NCBI GenBank assembly: GCA_012401045.1
Contig: GCA_012401045.1_4704.1
From: a phage
Length of the DNA stretch: 64,000 bases
Strand: one strand, 5' to 3'
The first letter of the stretch is position 1. Every line of letters begins with the position of its first letter. Under the pieces are notes generated by a model. It had not been told where the DNA came from, searched no databases, and saw nothing but the letters and a program-made list of their open reading frames with translations. The translations under genes and the position numbers were made by a program. Of this stretch, positions 3,090 to 13,567 are shown piece after piece.

Positions 3090-5243
3090 TTACTCTGCGG
3101 TTTCTTGCTTCGGTAAATAACTTGCTGCGATGTCTTGGGCTAACAATGTATTGTTTTTATTCGAGATGAAAATACCATAACTTTCCATTAACGCGTAATA
3201 CGAACGCACGAGCGTAGAGATCAATCGACGAATATCCATACCTTGAATAAAGATATCAGGAAGCCCGGAGGCTTCGATCACCGGTAATGGTATCGTTAAG
3301 TTGCTTATCGTTTTCTTATCGTTACGTACAATCCAATCACGGAAACGTTGTTGTAACCCTTTATCCTCCCAGGAATCAATCCAATCGTTAAGAAGCGTTT
3401 TGTTCTTCGTCGCCAACGGCACACGAACCCCAACATAGGGTGGTTCAGGGCAATGGCCGTACGATTGAGCAAACACCTCTTCCCACATATCGTAAGACTG
3501 TTTCGTTACTGCAACATGCGGTTTCACTTTAACACGCGTTAAGAAATCAGGATCACCACGTTTCATAGACTCAACGATTTCGTTTTCTAACGAGATAATA
3601 TCGTCAAGAACCAATCGAATGCTGATCTTCTCGTTACGTAACAGCTTATCCATGATACCACACATCATGCGTTCAACACGTTTGACGATCATTTTTGGTG
3701 CTGACGCATCACGCATAACCGGACCTTTCAATTCCAGCTTCGGTGGATTGATAGGAACCCCCTCACGCATGGTCATGTAACCGTAATAGTTTTTACCCAT
3801 CGAGGTTAACGACAGAATCAAGAACATATATTCGTTCTTCATTTCCATCACGTACATATGCTCTTTCGCCACACCGATATTACCAGAACACATCGCCATC
3901 AGATGAACCGTAATCTGCGTAACCAGATAGATAAGCGTGTTTGCTAAGCGCGTCGAAACTGGATTGATCTCCATATTTCCAAATCGCCACTGAACCCACT
4001 CCTGGCAGGTAAACACCGTCGAGTCGGTATCAGACAACACACCCACTTCACGGATTGCTGATGGGAAAGCATAAACACCAGCCGGTTGGTTCTCGGTACG
4101 CCAGAACGCCATAATCAAATCAGCATAGCTTTGAATACGCTGTAGCATTAATTTTGTCGTTGCTGCAGTAAGACGATAACCAAGCTCATTTCCTTTTTCT
4201 AGCGCTACGTAAATCGCTTCCCCATTCAAGAACTCCGTACATTGTGCTGTAATCCAAGCGACCGTGTTGTTATCCATGGAAGCAATAATGGCTTTAGCCT
4301 CTTCCATCGTTTCAACAGGTTCGGATGCCAGCTCGCATAACGAATCAAGAAAATCTCGAACAAATTCAGGATTAAGCTCACGTAACGAGTACAGGTTATT
4401 GCTGTACATGTAGCAGGCACGTTCCAACGGTGTTAAACCAGTAATTAACTCCCGGATAGTCAGTTCTTTCTCTGGGTCGAAAGTATATCGATGCAAGCAT
4501 TTCGATACGTTAGCCCAAACCTCTTCCGGCGTAGGGTAATGTAGTTTGTATTTTACCATTACCTGTTCAATGGCTTTACGATCGCTGTTGCGGACAATAC
4601 TCACGATGTTTTCAATTGCGATATCACAATCGTAATAATGGAAATTGCCCGCAAGGAAGCGTTCGTTGTTCGCATTGGCTGAACCTGAAGCACAGCGACA
4701 CGTTGTCGTTAAACTTGGATGCGCAATTGGATTATAAAAAGGGTTAAACTTGGACGCCTGGGTTCCTGACAAACTGTTGTTATCTAACTTGGTGTTGGTT
4801 TGTCGTTTATCGTGTAACTCAGCTTCATCTTTACGTCCGTGTGCTTGCGCTATCGACATTTGTTTCTTTTGTTTCTTACGCAACTTACCGTTTTCAACCG
4901 CAAAGTCGCTTAGCACACTGGAACGTGTTTCACGTGGATAACAGTTAGCCCACACCGGCGTGATAATTAAATTATTTTCTTTAATATCATTGAAGTATTG
5001 GCTGAACTTGATGACTTCTTTTTCTCGATTTCCTTCGGTGCGCTGTGTTAATACAAGGCAGTCGGGATCAACCATCCCGTATTTTCCACCAGGACGAACC
5101 GTATCAAGGACAAACTGCAACGCTTCCTGCTGTGATATCCCACGCATGCGCATTAAGAACAGGGTATAATCCTGTACCGCTTCTTTGGTCATATCCAACG
5201 TACGGCCATATCCGTTTTCATCGTAAAAGAACGGATTTTCCAT
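3090..5243 (-). CDS. Large conserved-looking protein with PolB-like palm motifs (possible divergent family-B DNA polymerase catalytic fragment lacking an exonuclease domain)
   Basis: 717 aa with SD GGAGG before the ATG. GVLSDTDSTVF (DTDS at 4031..4020) resembles PolB motif C (YGDTDS). GKNYYGYMTMREG lies 78 aa later and resembles the KKRYA (KxY) motif at PolB-like spacing. Motifs A and B are not convincingly found. Confidence 0.4.
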   Translation of the reverse strand: MENPFFYDENGYGRTLDMTKEAVQDYTLFLMRMRGISQQEALQFVLDTVRPGGKYGMVDPDCLVLTQRTEGNREKEVIKFSQYFNDIKENNLIITPVWANCYPRETRSSVLSDFAVENGKLRKKQKKQMSIAQAHGRKDEAELHDKRQTNTKLDNNSLSGTQASKFNPFYNPIAHPSLTTTCRCASGSANANNERFLAGNFHYYDCDIAIENIVSIVRNSDRKAIEQVMVKYKLHYPTPEEVWANVSKCLHRYTFDPEKELTIRELITGLTPLERACYMYSNNLYSLRELNPEFVRDFLDSLCELASEPVETMEEAKAIIASMDNNTVAWITAQCTEFLNGEAIYVALEKGNELGYRLTAATTKLMLQRIQSYADLIMAFWRTENQPAGVYAFPSAIREVGVLSDTDSTVFTCQEWVQWRFGNMEINPVSTRLANTLIYLVTQITVHLMAMCSGNIGVAKEHMYVMEMKNEYMFLILSLTSMGKNYYGYMTMREGVPINPPKLELKGPVMRDASAPKMIVKRVERMMCGIMDKLLRNEKISIRLVLDDIISLENEIVESMKRGDPDFLTRVKVKPHVAVTKQSYDMWEEVFAQSYGHCPEPPYVGVRVPLATKNKTLLNDWIDSWEDKGLQQRFRDWIVRNDKKTISNLTIPLPVIEASGLPDIFIQGMDIRRLISTLVRSYYALMESYGIFISNKNNTLLAQDIAASYLPKQETAE

Positions 5244-5308
5244 AAATCCTCCAAAAGTTATTTAGTCTGTCTACATCATCTCGTATATCTGTTAAAAAAG
5301 AAGGACGG

Positions 5309-5346
5309 CATAAAAAAGAACCGATCCAGCCGAAGCCAGATCGGTT
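5309..5346 (-). terminator. Rho-independent terminator with UUCG loop, followed by TTTTTTATGCCGT
   Basis: AACCGATC (5319..5326) pairs with GATCGGTT (5339..5346). On the minus strand the hairpin is followed by CTTTTTTATGCCGT (TATG at 5312..5309). Confidence 0.75.
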
Positions 5347-5541
5347 AAAAAGGATAATAACTGACAGAAAGATATCGATGATGTTCGTGAAACAAGATCT
5401 TCTCTCGTGTACAATGATGCTAGATCAGAGGGAGGTTGTAACACGAGAGGTGGTCCGCCAAAGAAGGAATAAAAACACGAACCTATCTTATTTCACTGAT
5501 GGCACTAACCACTCAAAATATATAGTACCGTATGTAAAAGT

Positions 5542-5955
5542 TTACTGATTAATCAAGTCGTTAGCAACAATCTTGGTGTAACCTGCCTGATTAAGAATTT
5601 GATTAATTTTCGTCACGTCGGTCGCATCCTCAATAACGATGCTGGGTTTATAGATCAGCGTCTTGGTAACGACGATTGTACTCTCCTTAATCCAAGGAAT
5701 CCCTAGAATCACATACTCACCATCGGCTGTAATGACCTCGACGTAATTGTATTTCGTCGGATCGTTCGGTACACTAGACGGGAGCCGGGAATAAATCTGT
5801 TGGTGAATGGCGTCTACATCACGGCCGTTACGCACAGCCGTACGATAGTTGTACACGGCACTAATTTCTACTCCGTTGAAGTTAACCCCAAGTTCTGGGG
5901 CGTACACATCAAAACTCACAACAGAGCCAATCTTTTCTAAATCAGAAGCTGGCAT
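5542..5955 (-). CDS. Hypothetical protein (137 aa)
   Basis: Clean ORF with protein-like composition, followed by a long 3' UTR and a terminator. Confidence 0.7.
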   Translation of the reverse strand: MPASDLEKIGSVVSFDVYAPELGVNFNGVEISAVYNYRTAVRNGRDVDAIHQQIYSRLPSSVPNDPTKYNYVEVITADGEYVILGIPWIKESTIVVTKTLIYKPSIVIEDATDVTKINQILNQAGYTKIVANDLINQ

Positions 5956-5966
5956 AATAGCATCCT

Positions 5967-6365
5967 TTATTTAAAAATGTATTCATATCCGAAAGTCGTC
6001 GCTGACCAGACCCGGATAGATGATAGTGTTCCGCCACGATAAAACGTTTTTGTGAATTCCATATCCTGGACAACACGATAATAAACACGTCCGATAATAC
6101 GCACGATAAGGTTTCGTGATAACGATCTCTCCTCGCAGTATTCATCGATAAAGTCATCGTCGATATCCGATAAGACAACATCCGCAATTTCTTGCAGTAG
6201 ATTCCTCATCAGCATCTGCCTTCCTTCGGTACCCCACCCAGACAAACAGTAATCGTCTTCTGCCTGACTATAGATGTCGTTAACCGCCTGTTCGAGCAGT
6301 TGCTCAAGATAGTAGTCATCGCGTTTTATAACGTGGCGACGGCGCTCAGTGGCGTATTTTTCCAT
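5967..6365 (-). CDS. Hypothetical protein (start chosen at internal ATG, 132 aa)
   Basis: The track ORF is 5967..6488. Its N-terminal 41 aa overlap the upstream gene and look non-protein-like. MEKYATERRR starts at 6365. Confidence 0.55.
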   Translation of the reverse strand: MEKYATERRRHVIKRDDYYLEQLLEQAVNDIYSQAEDDYCLSGWGTEGRQMLMRNLLQEIADVVLSDIDDDFIDEYCEERSLSRNLIVRIIGRVYYRVVQDMEFTKTFYRGGTLSSIRVWSATTFGYEYIFK

Positions 6366-6814
6366 CCTGTGTTTCTCTTGTTCGGCGTATGTATTAACGA
6401 CGCCACAGTCTTTTCTGGATCGTCCCACAATGCACGACGAAAACTGGATACTACCATAACGGTAGGATAGATTTGTACAACCTCCCATCCGTAACGATGT
6501 GCGTTAGTCGTACGTCCGACATTGAACAGACATAGCTGATTTAAGAAACAGAGCTGCATCTTCGTAAACAACACCATGTCTTCACGTTTAACGTATCCGA
6601 GGATATATGCATTCTCGAACGCCTCGCGTGACAAGACGGGACGATTAAGATACCGTAACGCTAATACCAACAACGTTGTTATGCGCAACGGATCTTCTGG
6701 GTCATTCATGGTGCTCAGCTCTGCTTGTAACCAGTCAGGGATAGTAACCGTCAGACGATAGGTATCTGTTCCACGATCAACCACATTCAATGTTGAAAAA
6801 GGCAACATATCCAT
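6326..6814 (-). CDS. Hypothetical protein (162 aa)
   Basis: ATG 6814 is preceded by AGAAGGAAT (SD). It overlaps the upstream gene by 38 nt. Confidence 0.65.
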   Translation of the reverse strand: MDMLPFSTLNVVDRGTDTYRLTVTIPDWLQAELSTMNDPEDPLRITTLLVLALRYLNRPVLSREAFENAYILGYVKREDMVLFTKMQLCFLNQLCLFNVGRTTNAHRYGWEVVQIYPTVMVVSSFRRALWDDPEKTVASLIHTPNKRNTGWKNTPLSAVATL

Positions 6815-7271
6815 GAATTCCTTCTAGCTCGAGGTTGTTCTCGCCGGTCTTCGGTAATAACCCACTGGCCGTTAACATCTGTGTCATCGAGTAGTCAAAG
6901 CACGGGAATATCAGGTTAACGGTTTCCTGGATCGCGTCAACATAACTATAAATGGCTTCATAATACTCACCGTCATGATCTACGCTAACCAGTTCCTGAC
7001 ACAGTTCTTCGCTTATCATTTCATATACCGGCGGATACCACGATTGAAATGGTCGCTGCATACGTAACGACCAATACTCGTACGTCGTATACTGAAGCAC
7101 GTCGTAAGCCGATACGTTAATGCGGTCGAAGAAAGCATACTTGTCCATATGCTGATACAACATCGCCAGCACGGTTTCCAAGCACACCGATATCCGCACG
7201 CCGTCATCTTTCCCGTTAAGAAAATTAGGTTTCTGCCGATAACGCACAAATGCCGACGGCTTTGATTGCAT
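6777..7271 (-). CDS. Hypothetical protein (164 aa; start at internal ATG)
   Basis: MQSKPSAF starts at 7271 in a TAATG stop/start overlap with the upstream gene. The track's longer N-terminus overlaps that gene. Confidence 0.65.
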   Translation of the reverse strand: MQSKPSAFVRYRQKPNFLNGKDDGVRISVCLETVLAMLYQHMDKYAFFDRINVSAYDVLQYTTYEYWSLRMQRPFQSWYPPVYEMISEELCQELVSVDHDGEYYEAIYSYVDAIQETVNLIFPCFDYSMTQMLTASGLLPKTGENNLELEGIHGYVAFFNIECG

Positions 7272-7756
7272 TATTCCACCACCAACCATAACGTCATACT
7301 CGTATCTAACGTAAAATTGAAATGCCACCAATCTTCTACACGTGGAATCCACGTACGAAGGATTTGGTTAACTTCGCTTCGCATCACCGATAAACGACAA
7401 CGAAAATCGAACTTCTCATCGTGGCCGTAGTCTTCATGCATGAAAACTTCATCCAAAACGAACTCAAGTTGCATGTCGACATCACGGCCAGAGATATTCC
7501 GTTTGTACAGATACAGTTCAATCGTGTCGTAAAGCAACGTGTGAATATCATAATTTCCGTTCGGTGAGAAATAAGGTAATCGCTCATCGAGCATCGTAAA
7601 CAGATATTCGCTGTAGTTTAATAACGGGATGATGTACCGACGCCCTGTCTGTGGTGTGCGAATATGTATCGAAACCTGACTTGGGCGCGGAATAACCGAC
7701 GGCTTAGAATCGTCTCTCTGAAATTGCTCTAAAGATCGCAACAAAGGTGGCCGCAT
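7271..7756 (-). CDS. Hypothetical protein (161 aa; start at internal ATG)
   Basis: The N-terminal part of track ORF 7271..7954 overlaps better-looking coding sequence in another frame. ATG 7756 has GGAGAG 7 nt upstream. Confidence 0.5.
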   Translation of the reverse strand: MRPPLLRSLEQFQRDDSKPSVIPRPSQVSIHIRTPQTGRRYIIPLLNYSEYLFTMLDERLPYFSPNGNYDIHTLLYDTIELYLYKRNISGRDVDMQLEFVLDEVFMHEDYGHDEKFDFRCRLSVMRSEVNQILRTWIPRVEDWWHFNFTLDTSMTLWLVVE

Positions 7757-8135
7757 TGTAACTCTCCAACGCCCAATTGTAAGGCCCTTCCAACATGTGT
7801 TCCCATACGTGAATAAACTCACTACCGAAGACAGGCTCCAGCGCCATGGTGAGATTCGTAAGTTCTGACGCAGCCGCATGGTAAGCATCAACATGTCTTT
7901 CCATTGACGGATCGTCTTCATTGAAAATACGTTCTGTGTCGCCAGCCCGCTCAATAAGTTCGGTAATGAGATCTGTCCATGTCTCGTGACACGTCATCAT
8001 TTCCTGTTCTCGACTTAGTATGCCGATGTCTGCGTGGACGCTGGACTCGAACCGGTCTAAAAGGACCCGAAGAACGTGCACCTTGTCGATGTATTTCACC
8101 GTTATCCAGGAAAGCGGTTGCCACCGACTCAGCAT
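7704..8135 (-). CDS. Hypothetical acidic helical protein (start uncertain: ATG 8135 or GTG 8099)
   Basis: The C-terminal ~140 aa of track ORF 7704..8333 look like genuine protein (ITVKYIDKVHVLRVLLDRFESS...). The upstream 66 aa overlap the good part of 7951..8928. Confidence 0.5.
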   Translation of the reverse strand: MLSRWQPLSWITVKYIDKVHVLRVLLDRFESSVHADIGILSREQEMMTCHETWTDLITELIERAGDTERIFNEDDPSMERHVDAYHAAASELTNLTMALEPVFGSEFIHVWEHMLEGPYNWALESYNAATFVAIFRAISERRF

Positions 8136-8928
8136 CCATCCGGTACTCGGGAACCCCAAACTCATATAGTACGGGTTGCACCGGACCGAAGACGGAGCGA
8201 CGTTGTTTAAATCGCTCCTTAAGGGCAAGGCCTTGTTTAATATAAACGGGTTCATTGGCGAGTTGTTCCGCTTTTCGTTTTGCGTGAGCCAATCGAAGTT
8301 CTTCCAATTGCCCAAGCCATTCAAATTGTTCATCTGTTAGCTCCTGGGGACGTTCAACAATCGCGCCAGACGGGCAGATATTGATCGTAATGTTAATTGA
8401 CGGCATCGCCATCACTCGAGGATTACTATTACGTACGCGGACAACATGTTCGGTTGCTGATTTACGATCGACGCAATACTCTGTTTCTTGGAACTCAAAT
8501 GCTTTTAACGGCGTTGGTTTTGTTTGACGTTTAGGAACGCGGCCAAGATCAACAATATAGGCATAATCGCACACACGTTCTATTCCGTAAATACGGTTAT
8601 CCGACCAGTTCTTACCAAACAGCTTGTTGTGATGATAAGACAAATATTCGGTTACCATACCCTGGACAACATCGAAATCTTCTCGAAATTCAGGTTGGTA
8701 CCAAATCGGGCCGAGAATATCTGCGAACGATTCATGACGATATCGAGGATCATGTCGAGTCCAGGTCATTCTCTGGTTAAGATCGAAATCCACCAACAAC
8801 TCGGTTAATTGCAATTTTTCCTTCGGAGAAAGCTGGCGTTGATGATGCAAACTCAGACAATCGATAAGCGGTAATGAAACCCACGATGCTAATGTGTACA
8901 AATCGATCCTGGCTAATCTCTTGGTCAT
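7951..8928 (-). CDS. Hypothetical protein (325 aa as tracked; the last ~45 aa are an Arg-rich tail of doubtful reality)
   Basis: The sequence is protein-like up to ...ATAFLDNGEIH (~8089). After that comes RQGARSSGPFRPVRVQRPRRHRHTKSRTG, which overlaps the next gene's frame. Confidence 0.6.
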   Translation of the reverse strand: MTKRLARIDLYTLASWVSLPLIDCLSLHHQRQLSPKEKLQLTELLVDFDLNQRMTWTRHDPRYRHESFADILGPIWYQPEFREDFDVVQGMVTEYLSYHHNKLFGKNWSDNRIYGIERVCDYAYIVDLGRVPKRQTKPTPLKAFEFQETEYCVDRKSATEHVVRVRNSNPRVMAMPSINITINICPSGAIVERPQELTDEQFEWLGQLEELRLAHAKRKAEQLANEPVYIKQGLALKERFKQRRSVFGPVQPVLYEFGVPEYRMDAESVATAFLDNGEIHRQGARSSGPFRPVRVQRPRRHRHTKSRTGNDDVSRDMDRSHYRTY

Positions 8929-8986
8929 ACTCTTTTCCTAAGTCCCCATTGTTTATACACACGATATCTGGGAATAGTTAAAATAT

Positions 8987-8994
8987 ACGGCGTA
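8987..8994 (-). promoter_or_regulatory. TACGCCGTATAT motif upstream of gene 7951..8928
   Basis: The minus strand reads TTTTACGCCGTATATTTTAAC. The same 12-mer TACGCCGTATAT recurs at 31554..31565 (octamer core at 31558..31565). Confidence 0.35.
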
Positions 8995-9019
8995 AAACGA
9001 AGCAGGAGAGTTTCTGACG

Positions 9020-9340
9020 TCATTTTCTCCCTCTTCGAATACTACCGATACCTCTTTCGTCTAAGACGTCCCAGGCACGCTTTATTTCATCCTCCGTTGC
9101 TCTGGTATCTGGAGGGACAACCATAACACAGTCGTGGAACGGCCAATGTGTAGGTCTGGGGTTAGCGAACAAATCATCCCATTCAAATGTCCATTCTTTC
9201 TTTGAGCGATTGTAGTAGAGTGTAAGGTACGTGTTGGTATACGCCGGATAACCGCGCATAACTTCAATATCCTTACGATCTTGCCGTTCCTGATTCCAAT
9301 CGTTAAACCGCTTTCTTATTTTCTCCCACCACTTTCCCAT
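9020..9340 (-). CDS. Hypothetical protein (106 aa)
   Basis: SD AGGAG lies before the ATG. No motif recognised. Confidence 0.7.
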   Translation of the reverse strand: MGKWWEKIRKRFNDWNQERQDRKDIEVMRGYPAYTNTYLTLYYNRSKKEWTFEWDDLFANPRPTHWPFHDCVMVVPPDTRATEDEIKRAWDVLDERGIGSIRRGRK

Positions 9341-9352
9341 GCTTTCTCCTAC

Positions 9353-9384
9353 ACGGCATAAAAGCCTGCCCCGAAGGACAGGCT
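9353..9384 (-). terminator. Terminator with UUCG loop, followed by TTTTATGCCGT
   Basis: The minus strand reads AGCCTGTCCTTCGGGGCAGGCT TTTATGCCGT. TATG (9360..9357) is 18 nt before ATG 9340. Confidence 0.75.
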
Positions 9385-9393
9385 CGATAGAAC

Positions 9394-9594
9394 TTAACGA
9401 CCATCCAATTTCAATGAAGGATGGTTGACGATATGTGCGTGTTTTGCTGGGTCATATAGCTGATATGGAAAATAGCCATGCCATTGACGGCCTTGGCATT
9501 TCGTACACAGGAACTGACCAACACCTTGTCGATTCTCGTAAGCGAGTTCGGTACTATCAACATGACCGCAACGTTCGCAGATAAACAGCGACAT
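9394..9594 (-). CDS. Small zinc-ribbon protein (66 aa)
   Basis: Two CxxC pairs: CERCGH ... CTKCQG. Confidence 0.65.
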   Translation of the reverse strand: MSLFICERCGHVDSTELAYENRQGVGQFLCTKCQGRQWHGYFPYQLYDPAKHAHIVNHPSLKLDGR

Positions 9595-9631
9595 AGCGCA
9601 TCCCCATTCACTTGAACCTTTTGGTTCGGCA

Positions 9632-10612
9632 TTAGAAAAGCAAGAAACCGCTATTCTTCGCTTCCGCTACAGTTTCGTCACCAACTTTCGGTGCCTGTTG
9701 ACGCGCGTTACGATGTTCGATGTAACGTTTCGCTTCGTCAGCGATTTGTTTGATAATACCCCCTAAACGATCGGTACTTAAAACAAACGACGTCGCTTCA
9801 CGAATTGGGCTGCTTTCAGGCACAAAACCATCGCAGCTGTAAATAGCGCTAACGCCCATGACTTTTGTCGCGTCTTTCGGATAAAGCGTACAGAAAGCAA
9901 TCGGGCTATCGTTCTCTTTCGTCCAATCGTATCCCATGAACGTATTCAGTTCGGTGATCGTTGGTTCCAAACCGGTAACACGTGGATGGTTTAAGAAGTT
10001 TTCCAGGTCGGCGCTGTCAAGACGACGGTTCTCGCCAGAAAACAGAACACAAAGCTGGCTAATAACAACCTGCACGTCCAGGTTGACATCCTGCTCCGAT
10101 TTCCCATTTTCGCCATTCATGTGATAGCTAACAATCACTGGACGTTTCAACCCTTCTGCAGCCGCCATCAGTCCTTTGAAGGTGCGATCGGCGTTGATCG
10201 TTTGACGCTCATCATCGAACGAGGCAACGATGCAACACACCACACGTTCACCACGTTCCAGCAGGTTAGCAACCAACGCAGGACCTGCAACAGAACCTGA
10301 ACCACCGCTCAGACTAAAGACCACGATATTAAATTTACCTGGCGTATGCTTATTCAGAATACCCGGGATTTGTGAACAGATCAGTTCAGCGTTCTCATCA
10401 CGCTTCTTACCAGAACCGTCTAACTCACGACCGGCTGCATCTTTAAAGATGTAAATATGATCGTCACCCAGTGTGCTATCGCGTAGGTTAGCGCGGCTGG
10501 TATCGACATACGTCATGCTGTGTAATCCTTTCGCGACTTCGCCTTCAAATGCTGAGCCGATTTCGCCACCACAACCACCGACAGCCCAAATATGTACTTG
10601 GTTCTCTTGCAT
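9632..10612 (-). CDS. phuZ: PhuZ-type phage tubulin
   Basis: 326 aa. The N-terminal AVGGCGGEIG is like the tubulin T1 loop. VVFSLSGGSGSVAGP is like the tubulin signature GGGTGSG. Overall layout and the C-terminal tail match PhuZ as I remember it from 201phi2-1. SD AGGAG. Confidence 0.8.
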   Translation of the reverse strand: MQENQVHIWAVGGCGGEIGSAFEGEVAKGLHSMTYVDTSRANLRDSTLGDDHIYIFKDAAGRELDGSGKKRDENAELICSQIPGILNKHTPGKFNIVVFSLSGGSGSVAGPALVANLLERGERVVCCIVASFDDERQTINADRTFKGLMAAAEGLKRPVIVSYHMNGENGKSEQDVNLDVQVVISQLCVLFSGENRRLDSADLENFLNHPRVTGLEPTITELNTFMGYDWTKENDSPIAFCTLYPKDATKVMGVSAIYSCDGFVPESSPIREATSFVLSTDRLGGIIKQIADEAKRYIEHRNARQQAPKVGDETVAEAKNSGFLLF

Positions 10613-10622
10613 GTGAACTCCT

Positions 10623-10634
10623 AACTTAATATGT
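10623..10634 (+). promoter_or_regulatory. AACTTAATATGT promoter-like motif
   Basis: An exact 12-mer is shared with 14622..14633 on the minus strand. In both cases TATG lies 41-44 nt upstream of the start codon. Confidence 0.5.
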
Positions 10635-10676
10635 ATTTAACGTACAATGAATCTTTCTTTGCTAAAGGGGTGACCC

Positions 10677-11519
10677 ATGGGTGCTATTGACTACAGTGTA
10701 GATCGTATCTGTCGTACAATACCGGCAGATATCCTACAGTATTGCTATATCGATCGTTACGACTGGCGTAATCGCTATCCTCGTTCCGTAGAAGACATCA
10801 TTACCGATTGGGTAATCCGTAAACGGGTTATCGGCGACATCGATATCTACGGGGGACTACAAACCGTTATTCCCCTTGATGATGCAGGTGTCACAATCGA
10901 AGAAGTCACCATTAACTGTTATGTTTTCCACATTCCGTTGGAAGCCACACAGGGACGTTATATCACGTCCGCATTATCCATTATTTCAGGGAGCGTGAAC
11001 AACTACGGAATAAACTATAACGGGCAATGGGGCGCTTTCAACCAAACCCAATTTCAACGTCAGCTTTGTGGGTGGAACCCCGCAAGCAACACGTTACAGC
11101 AAGGGATGAACGCGTTCGGTCCCATGAACGTTCTTAGTACAGCCAACGTTGATATCATCGCCCCTAACACCATCATGGTGAACAACGTCACGCCTGTACA
11201 ATTTCCCCTGAGCCTACGCTGTTTCCTTGCCCACGATCCGGAACTTACCAACCTCAGCATGGAGGTTTGGAACGACTTCTACAAACTCTGTTTATACGCC
11301 ACGCAAAGTGACATCTACAACAGAACCGTTATCCGTCTCGATAGAGGTGTTACAGCACAAGGACAAGAAGTCGGTGCATTCAAGGAATACATCGATCGCT
11401 TTGCTGATGCTGAAAACACATATCAGGAATTCCTGAACGAAACGTGGGCAGGCGTTGCTGCCTGGAACGATCCGCAAACTAAACGTCGCGCCATTCGACT
11501 ACAAACCGGTTACTTCTGA
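10677..11519 (+). CDS. Hypothetical protein (280 aa)
   Basis: Clean ORF preceded by AAAGGGG. No motif recognised. Confidence 0.75.
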   Translation: MGAIDYSVDRICRTIPADILQYCYIDRYDWRNRYPRSVEDIITDWVIRKRVIGDIDIYGGLQTVIPLDDAGVTIEEVTINCYVFHIPLEATQGRYITSALSIISGSVNNYGINYNGQWGAFNQTQFQRQLCGWNPASNTLQQGMNAFGPMNVLSTANVDIIAPNTIMVNNVTPVQFPLSLRCFLAHDPELTNLSMEVWNDFYKLCLYATQSDIYNRTVIRLDRGVTAQGQEVGAFKEYIDRFADAENTYQEFLNETWAGVAAWNDPQTKRRAIRLQTGYF

Positions 11520-12046
11520 TTAACGACAGCTTCCTCCCTCGGTGTTTTCGAGGGAGGTATTTGCCGTTTAAACACTTTCAGCACGTTCGCAAATTCAGCG
11601 GCAATAATACAGGCCGAGGTTGATAGCTTATTACTGAAAATGAGATCGTCCGGTAAACAATCGAACTGAATACCGTATTGCGTCTTTGTCTCATCAACGA
11701 TCAATGACGGTGTCGATCTTGTCTTCGCGATGTCGGTGATATACAAACGTAGAAATAATTCACCGTCTTCGCTATCCATAAAACGATAGGCGTTACCAGA
11801 AAACGCAACACATGGCGTAACGATAAATTGAACACGATCGTCGGTCGGATGGATATTTAACCAACGTTCGATATCATTACTACTCACATTTCGCATATTT
11901 ACTACGGTAAAAGCAAATAGCGTATCGTGATGTTTGGAATAATGCAGCACGTACGCCGCACCTTTCTTTTTGTGAATCCCTTCAATGTATTCTATTGTCG
12001 TATAGCCGGATTTATATAGCTTTACTTGCGGTTTATCACTCATCAT
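11510..12046 (-). CDS. Hypothetical protein (178 aa; start at ATGA overlap)
   Basis: MMSDKPQV starts at 12046 and overlaps the TGA of the upstream gene. The track's longer N-terminus lies inside that gene. Confidence 0.65.
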   Translation of the reverse strand: MMSDKPQVKLYKSGYTTIEYIEGIHKKKGAAYVLHYSKHHDTLFAFTVVNMRNVSSNDIERWLNIHPTDDRVQFIVTPCVAFSGNAYRFMDSEDGELFLRLYITDIAKTRSTPSLIVDETKTQYGIQFDCLPDDLIFSNKLSTSACIIAAEFANVLKVFKRQIPPSKTPREEAVVNQK

Positions 12047-12342
12047 AACAACCCTTCCCGTTTCATCGCGGCACGCATACTTGCGTAAAGCGCATTCTTC
12101 ATTGCACCCGGACGCAACGGATAACAAATCTCATATCGACGTCCTTGTTTTACAGCAATTTTCCTTCCATTCAGAAACAACGTGCCATTATCCAGCAACA
12201 ACTCACCTTGTAGTACCATGAGTCCTGCTTTAACATGACGTCCTTCTTCTTTCGTTAAGACCTTATAGCCGTGTTTATCCAATAACCACAATTCGTAGAT
12301 ACCATGCGCAGCCTTCGGCATTACTTTCTTCTTCGTCGTCAT
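12043..12342 (-). CDS. Hypothetical protein (99 aa)
   Basis: ORF with protein-like composition in an operon-like array. Confidence 0.65.
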   Translation of the reverse strand: MTTKKKVMPKAAHGIYELWLLDKHGYKVLTKEEGRHVKAGLMVLQGELLLDNGTLFLNGRKIAVKQGRRYEICYPLRPGAMKNALYASMRAAMKREGLL

Positions 12343-12354
12343 GGAAGATCCTCC

Positions 12355-12729
12355 TTAAACTCCTTGTCGGATCATCACCAACCGGAGCATGTTGTATTCC
12401 AATGTAGCGCTTTCTAATTCGAATTCATATCGATACCAGAAATTCGGCTCTAATTGACCTACAACACATTTACGAACATCTGTCTGCACCTTCCTCGACA
12501 ACACCTGTAACAGTTGTGTTATCTCCGGCTTGAAGTAATGCGCCAAACCTAACTGATCAGAATAAAACAGGCCACAATCAAAGATGGCCTGTAAAATAAC
12601 ATATTCAACCATCAGGTGACGCGCATCGGGGTCAGGGAATGGCGAACGTAAAGCGAGATCTAACACATCGACGATTGGGCCGACATAAATGGCGGCACGG
12701 TACTCACGAATAACACTGATGTTATCCAT
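12355..12729 (-). CDS. Hypothetical protein (124 aa)
   Basis: ORF in the same array. Confidence 0.65.
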   Translation of the reverse strand: MDNISVIREYRAAIYVGPIVDVLDLALRSPFPDPDARHLMVEYVILQAIFDCGLFYSDQLGLAHYFKPEITQLLQVLSRKVQTDVRKCVVGQLEPNFWYRYEFELESATLEYNMLRLVMIRQGV

Positions 12730-12742
12730 GATAACCTATTCG

Positions 12743-13567
12743 TTAACTGTCGCTTTCTGACGTATCGACGTAGTTGAAAATACGATCCCGTAAACACTCG
12801 TAACGAGGCAACGCGCTAAGAATGATCATCTTCAACTGCATCGCGATCGATACACGTTCTTCATCCGATGCATCGTCTCCCCATTTACCCGGCTTAACCT
12901 GAATGGGTTCGTGCGGATCCTGCGGGAATATAAAGCTTAACAACAGATAATCCGTGCGGAACTCCCACACTTCTCGACCGTCGTTATCGGTTTCCTTACG
13001 CAACGTGAAGAGTTGACGTTCGGTGGTTGGATCCAACATCAGCGGTCGGCCACGAACAATCTCCAGTTTACGTGGGCTGACGAACGTCGTACGTTCAGGA
13101 AGGTATTTTTCAACATCATCCGTATCCAACAAGAACAAAATGATGTCGTCGAAATACTTCGGTGCGTACGTGTGTATCGGTTCACCGTCGCTATACGAAG
13201 AGATCTCTTGAAGTATTGGTGTCTTACACGAAAAGTTCTGGCATGAGCCGCGGGTGATCGGTAAGGTGGTCCATTGATGTTCTGTAGACAATTCAACAGG
13301 CACTAACGGATAGTCATCAATGAAAACCACACACGTTGTACTAATGGGTATTCTTCCATCATTACCGGGTTCAAAAACCAAACGTATCTTACCGGTAATC
13401 AACGCCATCTCATCTGGCATTAAATGGCTTGCTGAACGGGCAAGTCTGAAACCGGCCGCCTGTTTATAAGGTTCGGGTTTATAGCCACGGACAATAAGAG
13501 AGACATCCGCAAGTTCAACGCTCACGAACGCATCTTTGGTGTCTTCATTGTTCGTCGTTAACGTCAT
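12743..13567 (-). CDS. Hypothetical protein (274 aa)
   Basis: Long ORF; no motif recognised. Confidence 0.75.
   Translation of the reverse strand: MTLTTNNEDTKDAFVSVELADVSLIVRGYKPEPYKQAAGFRLARSASHLMPDEMALITGKIRLVFEPGNDGRIPISTTCVVFIDDYPLVPVELSTEHQWTTLPITRGSCQNFSCKTPILQEISSYSDGEPIHTYAPKYFDDIILFLLDTDDVEKYLPERTTFVSPRKLEIVRGRPLMLDPTTERQLFTLRKETDNDGREVWEFRTDYLLLSFIFPQDPHEPIQVKPGKWGDDASDEERVSIAMQLKMIILSALPRYECLRDRIFNYVDTSESDS

Follow-up and report, generated by a model that had tools for sequence, protein, structure and literature searches.

A probable long out-of-frame overlap between the gp198 and gp197 homologues of a Goslar-like jumbo phage

Two neighboring genes on the minus strand, the homologues of gp198 and gp197 of Escherichia phage vB_EcoM_Goslar, were analyzed in a 64,000-nucleotide (nt) stretch of phage DNA, referred to below as the window. 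They are very probably two separate, independently initiated genes with a long out-of-frame overlap, in which the dominant frame changes part-way; that two genes are present, with neither an indel nor a programmed frameshift, is held with still greater confidence. Both open reading frames (ORFs) had been listed in an initial annotation of the window and were present as listed, at 7951..8928 (325 amino acids, aa) and 7704..8333 (209 aa), each beginning with ATG. Their overlap had been given as 150-185 nt, whereas the two ORFs actually share 383 nt (8333..7951). The same annotation had pointed to a frame switch in this region and had offered overprinting, a frameshift fusion, or an assembly indel as its cause. 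The switch was confirmed and was also visible in evolution, through the phases of variable sites and the conservation between lineages. Among the three causes, overprinting was the one supported: the layout is kept without indels, both frames contain conserved protein, and the downstream frame has an ATG with its own Shine-Dalgarno (SD) sequence in each lineage.

The reading frames are hereafter named A (gp198), B (gp197), and C (gp196), with B in the +1 frame relative to A, and C in turn relative to B. Any fusion of A to B would therefore need a +1 or -2 shift.

Layout of the locus and the frame under selection

Window bases 7400-9100 matched the Goslar genome (MK327938) over their full length at 98.5% nucleotide identity, and Goslar was the sole match to these bases in the phage collection. 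Goslar is a nucleus-forming jumbo phage of E. coli. Its annotation at this locus, in window coordinates, includes gp198 (8928..7951, 325 aa), gp197 (8000..7704, 98 aa), and gp196 (7756..7271, 161 aa), and the locus lies on the minus strand three genes downstream of a PhuZ-like tubulin gene (9632..10612, Goslar_00201). The Goslar-like set comprised eight distinct assemblies, with contigs including L002-L005, L009, L010, and L015; of these, L002-L005 are Logan contigs from unrelated sequencing runs, with 87-96% identity to the window. Together with two distant lineages at about 30% protein identity, L006/L016 and L007, the Goslar group made up three lineages. Homologues of gene A were found in syntenic loci downstream of PhuZ, namely P0005 (85% identity), P0007 on L006 (32%, 334 aa), and P0008 on L007 (30%, 280 aa), and L016 was a second member of the L006 lineage. 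The gene order common to L006/L016 and L007 was DUF7484, PhuZ, a small ORF, A, and B, followed further along by SH3DP and DNA polymerase. Searches of IMG/VR and the JGI metagenomes returned nothing beyond close Goslar relatives and no further lineages, and the P0009 contig was too short for use in the comparison.

The layout of the two frames was conserved throughout. An alignment of 1801 nt from the window, Goslar, and L002-L005 contained zero gaps at 87-99% identity, and all Goslar-like sequences kept an intact A ORF and an intact 209-aa B ORF with the same first B ATG. In L006, L016, and L007 the +1 frame likewise stayed open over the end of the gp198 homologue and on into the gp197 homologue, with B-equivalent ORFs of 215 aa in L006 and 175 aa in L007. 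The orthologous loci of relatives contain the genes as separate units, with the basic tail conserved, which is in essence the arrangement that the initial annotation had named as the contrary case. Of the picture drawn there, the two overlapping genes stand, while the extent of the overlap and the start assumed for the downstream gene differ.

The frame under selection was located from the codon phase of substitutions. Within the Goslar group, variable sites fell mostly at A third positions in 8446-8182 (36 of 89) and at B third positions in 7992-7827. The 181 nt from 8181 to 8001 held only nine variable sites among the eight genomes, evenly split between A-silent and B-silent. The three-lineage alignment was gap-free from about 8237 to 8000, and identities in it were summed over the three lineage pairs in segments of 12 codons (maximum 36). 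The phase that is the third codon position of A and the second of B (A3/B2) showed chance-level identity in 8237-8166 (7-9 of 36), a pattern of coding in A, and A3 was the least conserved phase upstream of about 8175. In 8138-8049 A3/B2 was instead the most conserved phase (25-32 of 36) and A1/B3 the least conserved, which is the signature of coding in B. The pattern therefore turned from A-like to B-like at about 8165-8140 across three lineages. Because A3/B2 rises from chance to most conserved there, the constraint is handed over from A to B, as judged from these alignments, at about 8150. This is far upstream of the annotated gp197 start, and somewhat upstream of 8089-8135, where the initial annotation had placed the hand-over. 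Protein-level scores pointed the same way: in 8141-8087 the BLOSUM62 sums were 44, 70, and 39 in frame B, compared with 12, 16, and 18 in frame A. As noted initially, frame A continues after ...DNGEIH for 45 more codons (codons 281-325, 8088..7954), which read RQGARSSGPFRPVRVQRPRRHRH..., while frame B over the same bases reads ITVKYIDKVHVLRVLLDRFESS... and, more widely, ...WQPLSWITVKYIDKVHVLRVLLDRFESS....

Variation was reduced in both frames within the overlap. B third positions were variable at 6 of 61 sites in 8001..8181 versus 29 of 42 in 7950-7827 (Fisher p = 4e-10), with similar islands at gene starts that have no second ORF, and A third positions at 2 of 31 in 8181-8087 versus 36 of 89 upstream (p = 3e-4), where again similar islands exist without a second ORF. 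Between L006 and L016, A3 differences numbered 13 of 64 in the overlap versus 121 of 228 (p = 2e-6), though all three phases drop together. Stop codons were uninformative: only 6% of A-synonymous changes create a stop in B, so that their absence among about 22 variable sites carries little weight.

In the proposed explanation, gene A would be translated from its own start, and its conserved part ends at about 8140. Gene B would be translated independently in the +1 frame, most likely from ATG 8333 with the ribosome-binding site AGGAG inside A, as a protein of 209 aa. Its first 60 or so residues would form an unconstrained and probably disordered leader over the conserved part of A, and its conserved helical fold would begin at about 8150. 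From that point selection acts mainly on B, and A runs on to its next stop, producing an arginine-rich tail whose length differs among relatives. The proximal part of this tail may have gained a function, and its last 16 or so codons evolve freely.

Initiation of gene B and the alternatives to two genes

The B ORF has a strong SD ahead of its first ATG in each of the three lineages. In the window it is AGGAG, 7 nt before ATG 8333, with a duplex energy of -6.6 kcal/mol; a frame-B stop, TAA (8339..8337), lies between the two, and the context ccAGGAGctaacagATG was identical in all Goslar-like sequences. L006 has GGAGGA, 8 nt, and ATG (-9.5 kcal/mol) at the same position of gene A as the window, and L007 has GGAGGA, 8 nt, and ATG (-9.3 kcal/mol) at a different position. 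The reference was 51 annotated Goslar genes in a 50-kb stretch, 49 of which start with ATG; their median SD duplex energy was -6.4 kcal/mol, and the weakest tenth began at -4.7. Only 1.8% of all ATGs in the window reached -9 kcal/mol. The initial annotation had found no well-placed start or SD for B, which holds for the internal candidates at 8135, 8099, and 8000, where the SDs are poor, and fails for ATG 8333. The chance of such a site was estimated by a null simulation, in which the A protein and codon usage were fixed for each lineage and a +1 ATG open to the B core was required to have an SD at least as strong as observed. The null frequencies were 0.029, 0.032, and 0.037 in the three lineages, giving a joint probability of about 1e-3 when the window and L006 are counted as one event and about 3e-5 if all three are independent. 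Additionally, gene callers predicted the long forms on short contigs, at 209 aa for P0011 and 215 aa for P0012. Because of the strong SD in each lineage, the low null frequencies, and these long gene calls, initiation at ATG 8333 is moderately favored over initiation at an internal codon. Tryptic peptides predicted from the leader that this start would add are NFDWLTQNEK, NNSPMNPFILNK, SDLNNVAPSSVR, and CNPYYMSLGFPSTGWMLSR.

A less probable reading keeps the two overlapping genes but starts B at the internal ATG 8135 or GTG 8099, with an overlap of 149-185 nt, and takes the SD-ATG at 8333 as incidental. It agrees with the onset of protein conservation and of confident AlphaFold2 (AF2) structure only at about 8150, and with the likeness of the 8181-8001 island to the islands flanking other gene starts in the operon. 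A start codon also lies near the onset of the core in every lineage (ATG 8135 in the window, an ATG one codon earlier in L006, and a TTG one codon later in L007), and L006 has a further ATG ATG at the equivalents of 8105 and 8099. However, the SDs of the candidates are poor or absent (-5.1 kcal/mol for ATG 8135, -3.1 for GTG 8099, and +0.7 and -4.1 for others), none of the positions holds a start codon in every lineage, and ATG 8135 is ACG in L005. Both the conserved T-G/A residues and the onset of the predicted fold lie upstream of 8135, and the SD-ATG with an open frame in three lineages, at about 0.03 each, would be left unexplained.

Whichever start is used, the conserved part of B extends upstream of the annotated one. 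In the AF2 model of the 209-aa B, the predicted local distance difference test (pLDDT) was about 30 over residues 1-58, rising to 76-94 over residues 61-180, and residues 61-111 (pLDDT 76-89) belonged to one helical domain with the remainder of B. The helices predicted at residues 62-70, 76-81, and 84-100 all precede the annotated Met112, and so does the predicted tryptic peptide WQPLSWITVK. The best-conserved B segment, WQPLSWITVKYIDKVHVLRVLLDRF, aligned with FQAISWMTMKYVKPVNIIRLLLDRF in L006 and WQPLCWVTVSYVNKLMVLRF in L007. The annotated start itself is not conserved: the ATG ATG at 8000/7997 is ACA CTG in L002-L004, the first ATG is ACG in L010, and at ATG 8000 an AGGA motif abuts the ATG directly (-4.3 kcal/mol). 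With conserved sequence and predicted helices upstream of Met112 and an annotated start that is not conserved, the deposited gp197 is, on this comparative evidence, N-terminally truncated. The conserved protein would have at least 131-143 aa, and probably 209 aa, as opposed to the 98 aa of the Goslar record. The best-conserved helices are missing from the deposited protein, and any cloning, tagging, knock-down, or structural work based on the record would use a truncated form. In L002-L004, gene callers omitted B altogether. No significant match was found for A, B, or C in Pfam and PHROGs, and the helical core of B had no significant fold match in BFVD or PDB (best E = 0.5 and 1.7, respectively).

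Several observations weigh against two genes with B starting at 8333. The leader of about 60 residues shows no protein-level conservation and is disordered in the AF2 model, and the signs of its translation are the SD-ATG and the open frame alone; the B2/A3 identity between lineages was at chance level (8 of 36), and the B-frame substitutions within the Goslar group were radical. An open B frame is by itself only mildly improbable (0.05, 0.35, and 0.24 in the three lineages). Only three lineages were available, and the window and L006 share their SD-ATG site by descent. Between L006 and L016, differences in the region of the B leader fell in all phases, about 1.5-fold at A1/B3 and 2.3-2.6-fold at A2/B1 and A3/B2. 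Low-variation islands also occur at nearly every gene start of the operon, and one of them (7826-7757) has no second ORF. Since such islands arise without dual coding, recombination mosaicism or initiation-region constraints could contribute to the one in the overlap. Furthermore, the literature search found no paper mentioning Goslar gp197 or gp198 and no proteomic or ribosome-profiling (Ribo-seq) data on either. In two Goslar papers 'gp196' denotes a virion RNA polymerase subunit, while the locus tag Goslar_00196 of MK327938 belongs to a hypothetical protein of 161 aa; the gp numbering of the literature thus apparently departs from the locus tags of MK327938.

A programmed +1 frameshift near 8150, joining about 260 residues of A to B in a fusion of about 405 aa beside the 325-aa product, is unlikely, and its probability is put very low. 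It would predict the junction ...QPVLYEFGVPSTGWMLSR. The selected frame does change from A to B at a single place, a CCC followed by G lies at that spot (8151..8148) where a proline tRNA could re-pair in the +1 frame, and the internal start candidates of B are weak. However, no other +1-slippery codon lies close to the hand-over, and neither L006 (GAC CCG CAC) nor L007 (TAC CCA AAC) has CCC G in phase. There is no X XXY YYZ heptamer, and B is in any case the +1 frame; no rare-codon or stop-codon pause site at about 8150 is common to the lineages. The RNA fold of 7990-8190 was ordinary (minimum free energy, MFE, z = -0.74) and had no Rfam match. An exhaustive HMMER search with an artificial A+B fusion as query found no fused protein among 1.84 billion representatives, and none of the five proteins matched spans the junction; no lineage has a fused homologue. 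Frameshifting would also leave unexplained the independent SD-ATG that heads the B frame in all lineages. The fusion envisaged in the initial annotation thus has no conserved slippery site, stable RNA structure, or fused homologue in its favor.

The splitting of one ancestral gene, by an indel from sequencing or assembly or by a recent pseudogenising frameshift, would account for the frame switch itself and nothing more, and is refuted to near certainty by the comparative data: eight independent Goslar-like assemblies, at 87-99% identity, share one register, the same layout recurs in three contigs of two lineages at about 30% protein identity, third-position substitutions indicate purifying selection on both sides of the switch, and gene A of L007 stops cleanly at 280 aa while B carries on in the other frame.

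An RNA element was considered as the cause of the conserved island and rejected, as ARAGORN found no tRNA, Rfam matches were at chance level only, and the MFE z-score was -0.74. At 8043..8053 (minus strand), in the A/B overlap, the sequence GGTTCGAGTCC is close to the T-arm consensus of tRNA; given that there is no ARAGORN tRNA in the window and no Rfam match at this site, the likeness is probably due to chance. A scan for sigma-70 promoters and terminators returned sites no more numerous than in shuffled sequence.

The arginine-rich tail of gene A and the neighboring operon

The length of gene A varied among relatives: 280 aa in L007, 321 aa in L010, 325 aa in most Goslar-like sequences, 334 aa in L006, and 342 aa in L016. 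In L007, gene A stops at the equivalent of about 8086 and has no tail, and in L010 it stops four codons early through a change of CGA to TGA at 7962. The tail is a by-reading of B codons; for example, LLDRF in B (CTT TTA GAC CGG TTC) becomes P-F-R-P-V in frame A. The shorter tails in L006 and L016 carry a shared motif, RPVRxQR, that is also present in the window, and L006 and L016 agree in 16 codons of the tail.

The two parts of the tail differed in variability. Over the last 16 codons of A (8000-7951), B third positions varied at 7 of 16 sites and are thus free to change, which leaves frame A unconstrained there. In 8086-8001, B third positions varied at only 3 of 29 (p = 0.02 versus 8000-7951). 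From this low variation, the shared RPVRxQR, and the 16 identical codons, the proximal tail (through RPVRVQRPRRHRH) may be under selection of its own or have acquired a function. Two caveats apply: equally strong low-variation islands lie at almost every gene start of the operon, including 7826-7757 where there is no second ORF, and between L006 and L016 the variability of B third positions over the whole tail was not reduced (12 of 43 versus 40 of 110, p = 0.35). The tail was modeled as disordered by AF2, but the model of A was overall too poor to use (pLDDT 48). SSGPFRPVR is a predicted tryptic peptide of the tail.

A more speculative possibility, which we consider doubtful, is reciprocal overprinting, where the disordered leader of the 209-aa B was born inside the conserved part of A and the proximal tail of A, RPVRxQRxRR, is a recently born functional module. 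The tail might tentatively be a nucleic-acid-binding or localization signal, for example, in a nucleus-forming phage, and it could conceivably have arisen by loss of the A stop codon and read-through over the N-terminal helices of B. The RPVRxQRxRR motif was common to the Goslar and L006 lineages and absent in L007. If reciprocal overprinting were true, the three lineages would represent successive steps in the birth of new protein sequence.

Downstream of B, variable sites fell at C third positions from 7703 downward. Divergence between the window at 3951..12928 and L002 (87% identical) was very uneven, with islands of 0-5 differences per 90 nt compared with 15-30 elsewhere. Examples are 10680-10500, 9000-8900, 7826-7704, 6414-6325, 5994-5875, and 5233-5144. 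These islands lie at the starts of PhuZ, gp198, gp196, gp193, gp192, and gp191 and reach about 70 nt upstream into the preceding gene; initiation-region or promoter constraints, or conserved linkers for module recombination, are possible causes. One of them, the 70 nt at 7757..7826 (minus strand) within B and upstream of the gp196 start, was near-invariant in the eight Goslar-like genomes, with B third positions variable at 2 of 23 versus 29 of 42 just upstream. In Goslar and L002-L004 a TAG at 7840..7838 interrupts frame C, and so no second ORF explains this island.

Gene boundaries also varied elsewhere in the operon. L005 lacks 189 nt at 9096..9284, within a minus-strand ORF (9020..9340, gp199-like, PHROG 5903) that was called at 65 aa versus 106 aa, and the gp199-like gene can thus apparently lose a sizeable in-frame segment. 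Records disagree on where the gp195 homologue starts, giving 170 aa in L002-L005 (5640..6152 in L002) and 164 aa in Goslar; its boundary with gp196 corresponds to 7271..7352 of the window. Throughout the run from gp198 to gp193, genes begin 19-53 nt before the end of their predecessors. Further starts in the operon may also merit a check.

Table 1. Coordinates of the two overlapping genes, their parts, and gene C in the window.
Feature	Position	Strand	Description
Gene A	7951..8928	-	Goslar gp198 orthologue; 325 aa plus stop; 99.7% identical to Goslar_00198
Conserved core of gene A	8140..8928	-	Residues 1-263, ending at invariant Arg263; invariant alignment columns; A is the selected frame
Arginine-rich C-terminal tail of A	7954..8088	-	Residues 281-325; frame A across the N-terminal helices of B
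Gene B, most likely full form	7704..8333	-	209 aa plus stop; longer version of Goslar gp197; from the ORF list
Out-of-frame A/B overlap	7951..8333	-	383 nt
Putative Shine-Dalgarno of B	8341..8345	-	AGGAG, 7 nt upstream of ATG 8333; context ccAGGAGctaacagATG
Putative N-terminal extension of B	8154..8333	-	Residues 1-60, over the conserved part of A; not conserved as protein
Conserved start of the B fold	8001..8153	-	Residues 61-111, three predicted helices; inside gene A, upstream of the annotated gp197 start
Low-variation island in the overlap	8001..8181	-	9 variable sites in 181 nt, eight Goslar-like genomes
Alternative candidate starts of B	8097..8135	-	ATG 8135..8133 (143 aa) and GTG 8099..8097 (131 aa); weak SDs
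Annotated gp197 start ATG	7998..8000	-	98-aa product; Goslar_00197 is window 8000..7704; not conserved
Gene C	7271..7756	-	Goslar gp196 orthologue; 161 aa, +1 frame of B; overlaps the end of B by 53 nt (7756..7704); SD GGAGAG at 7767..7762

Comparison with known overlapping and frameshifted genes

Out-of-frame overprinting is well known in phages, as in B within A and E within D of phiX174 and Rz1 within Rz of lambda. The A/B pair resembles these cases in that two proteins would come from the same DNA in different frames, and that the downstream or internal gene has its own predicted ribosome-binding site inside the other gene. Similarly, one frame dominates selection at each position while the other product is poorly conserved and probably disordered there, and synonymous variation is reduced in the overlap, although here this is also seen at operon gene starts without a second ORF. 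In contrast to phiX174 and lambda, A and B form a terminal overlap of neighbors rather than a fully nested gene. A dominates in 8333-8150 and B in 8150-7951, such that the free-riding extension of each gene overlies the conserved part of the other. The genome is also a double-stranded DNA (dsDNA) molecule of 237 kb with no obvious pressure to save space, and the A/B pair is known here from sequence alone.

Programmed +1 frameshifting is known from prfB of E. coli and from the capsid and tail genes of the Listeria phage PSA. As in those systems, the upstream ORF continues in the +1 frame into a well-conserved protein, and the zero-frame product ends in a short tail. Unlike them, A/B lacks a conserved shift codon, an in-frame stop or hungry codon, an SD-like stimulator 3 nt ahead of a shift codon, and a fused homologue, and its +1 frame has an SD-ATG of its own.

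Further parallels are the short overlaps of the operon itself, which in Goslar measure 53 nt for gp197/gp196, 32 nt for gp195/gp194, and 40 nt for gp194/gp193. In all of them, as in A/B, a gene begins, SD included, within the last part of its predecessor and is read in a different frame; the A/B overlap differs in being about ten times longer and in including protein sequence that is conserved in the downstream gene. It is a further example of a known phenomenon and not a new mechanism. In dsDNA phages, an overlap above about 60 nt is usually taken for an annotation error, and gene callers suppress it. The A/B pair provides a well-supported counter-example, where callers either dropped B, as in L002-L004, or truncated it. 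In addition, gene A at 280, 321, 325, 334, and 342 aa offers a small natural series in which shifts of a stop codon extend one protein across the frame of another.

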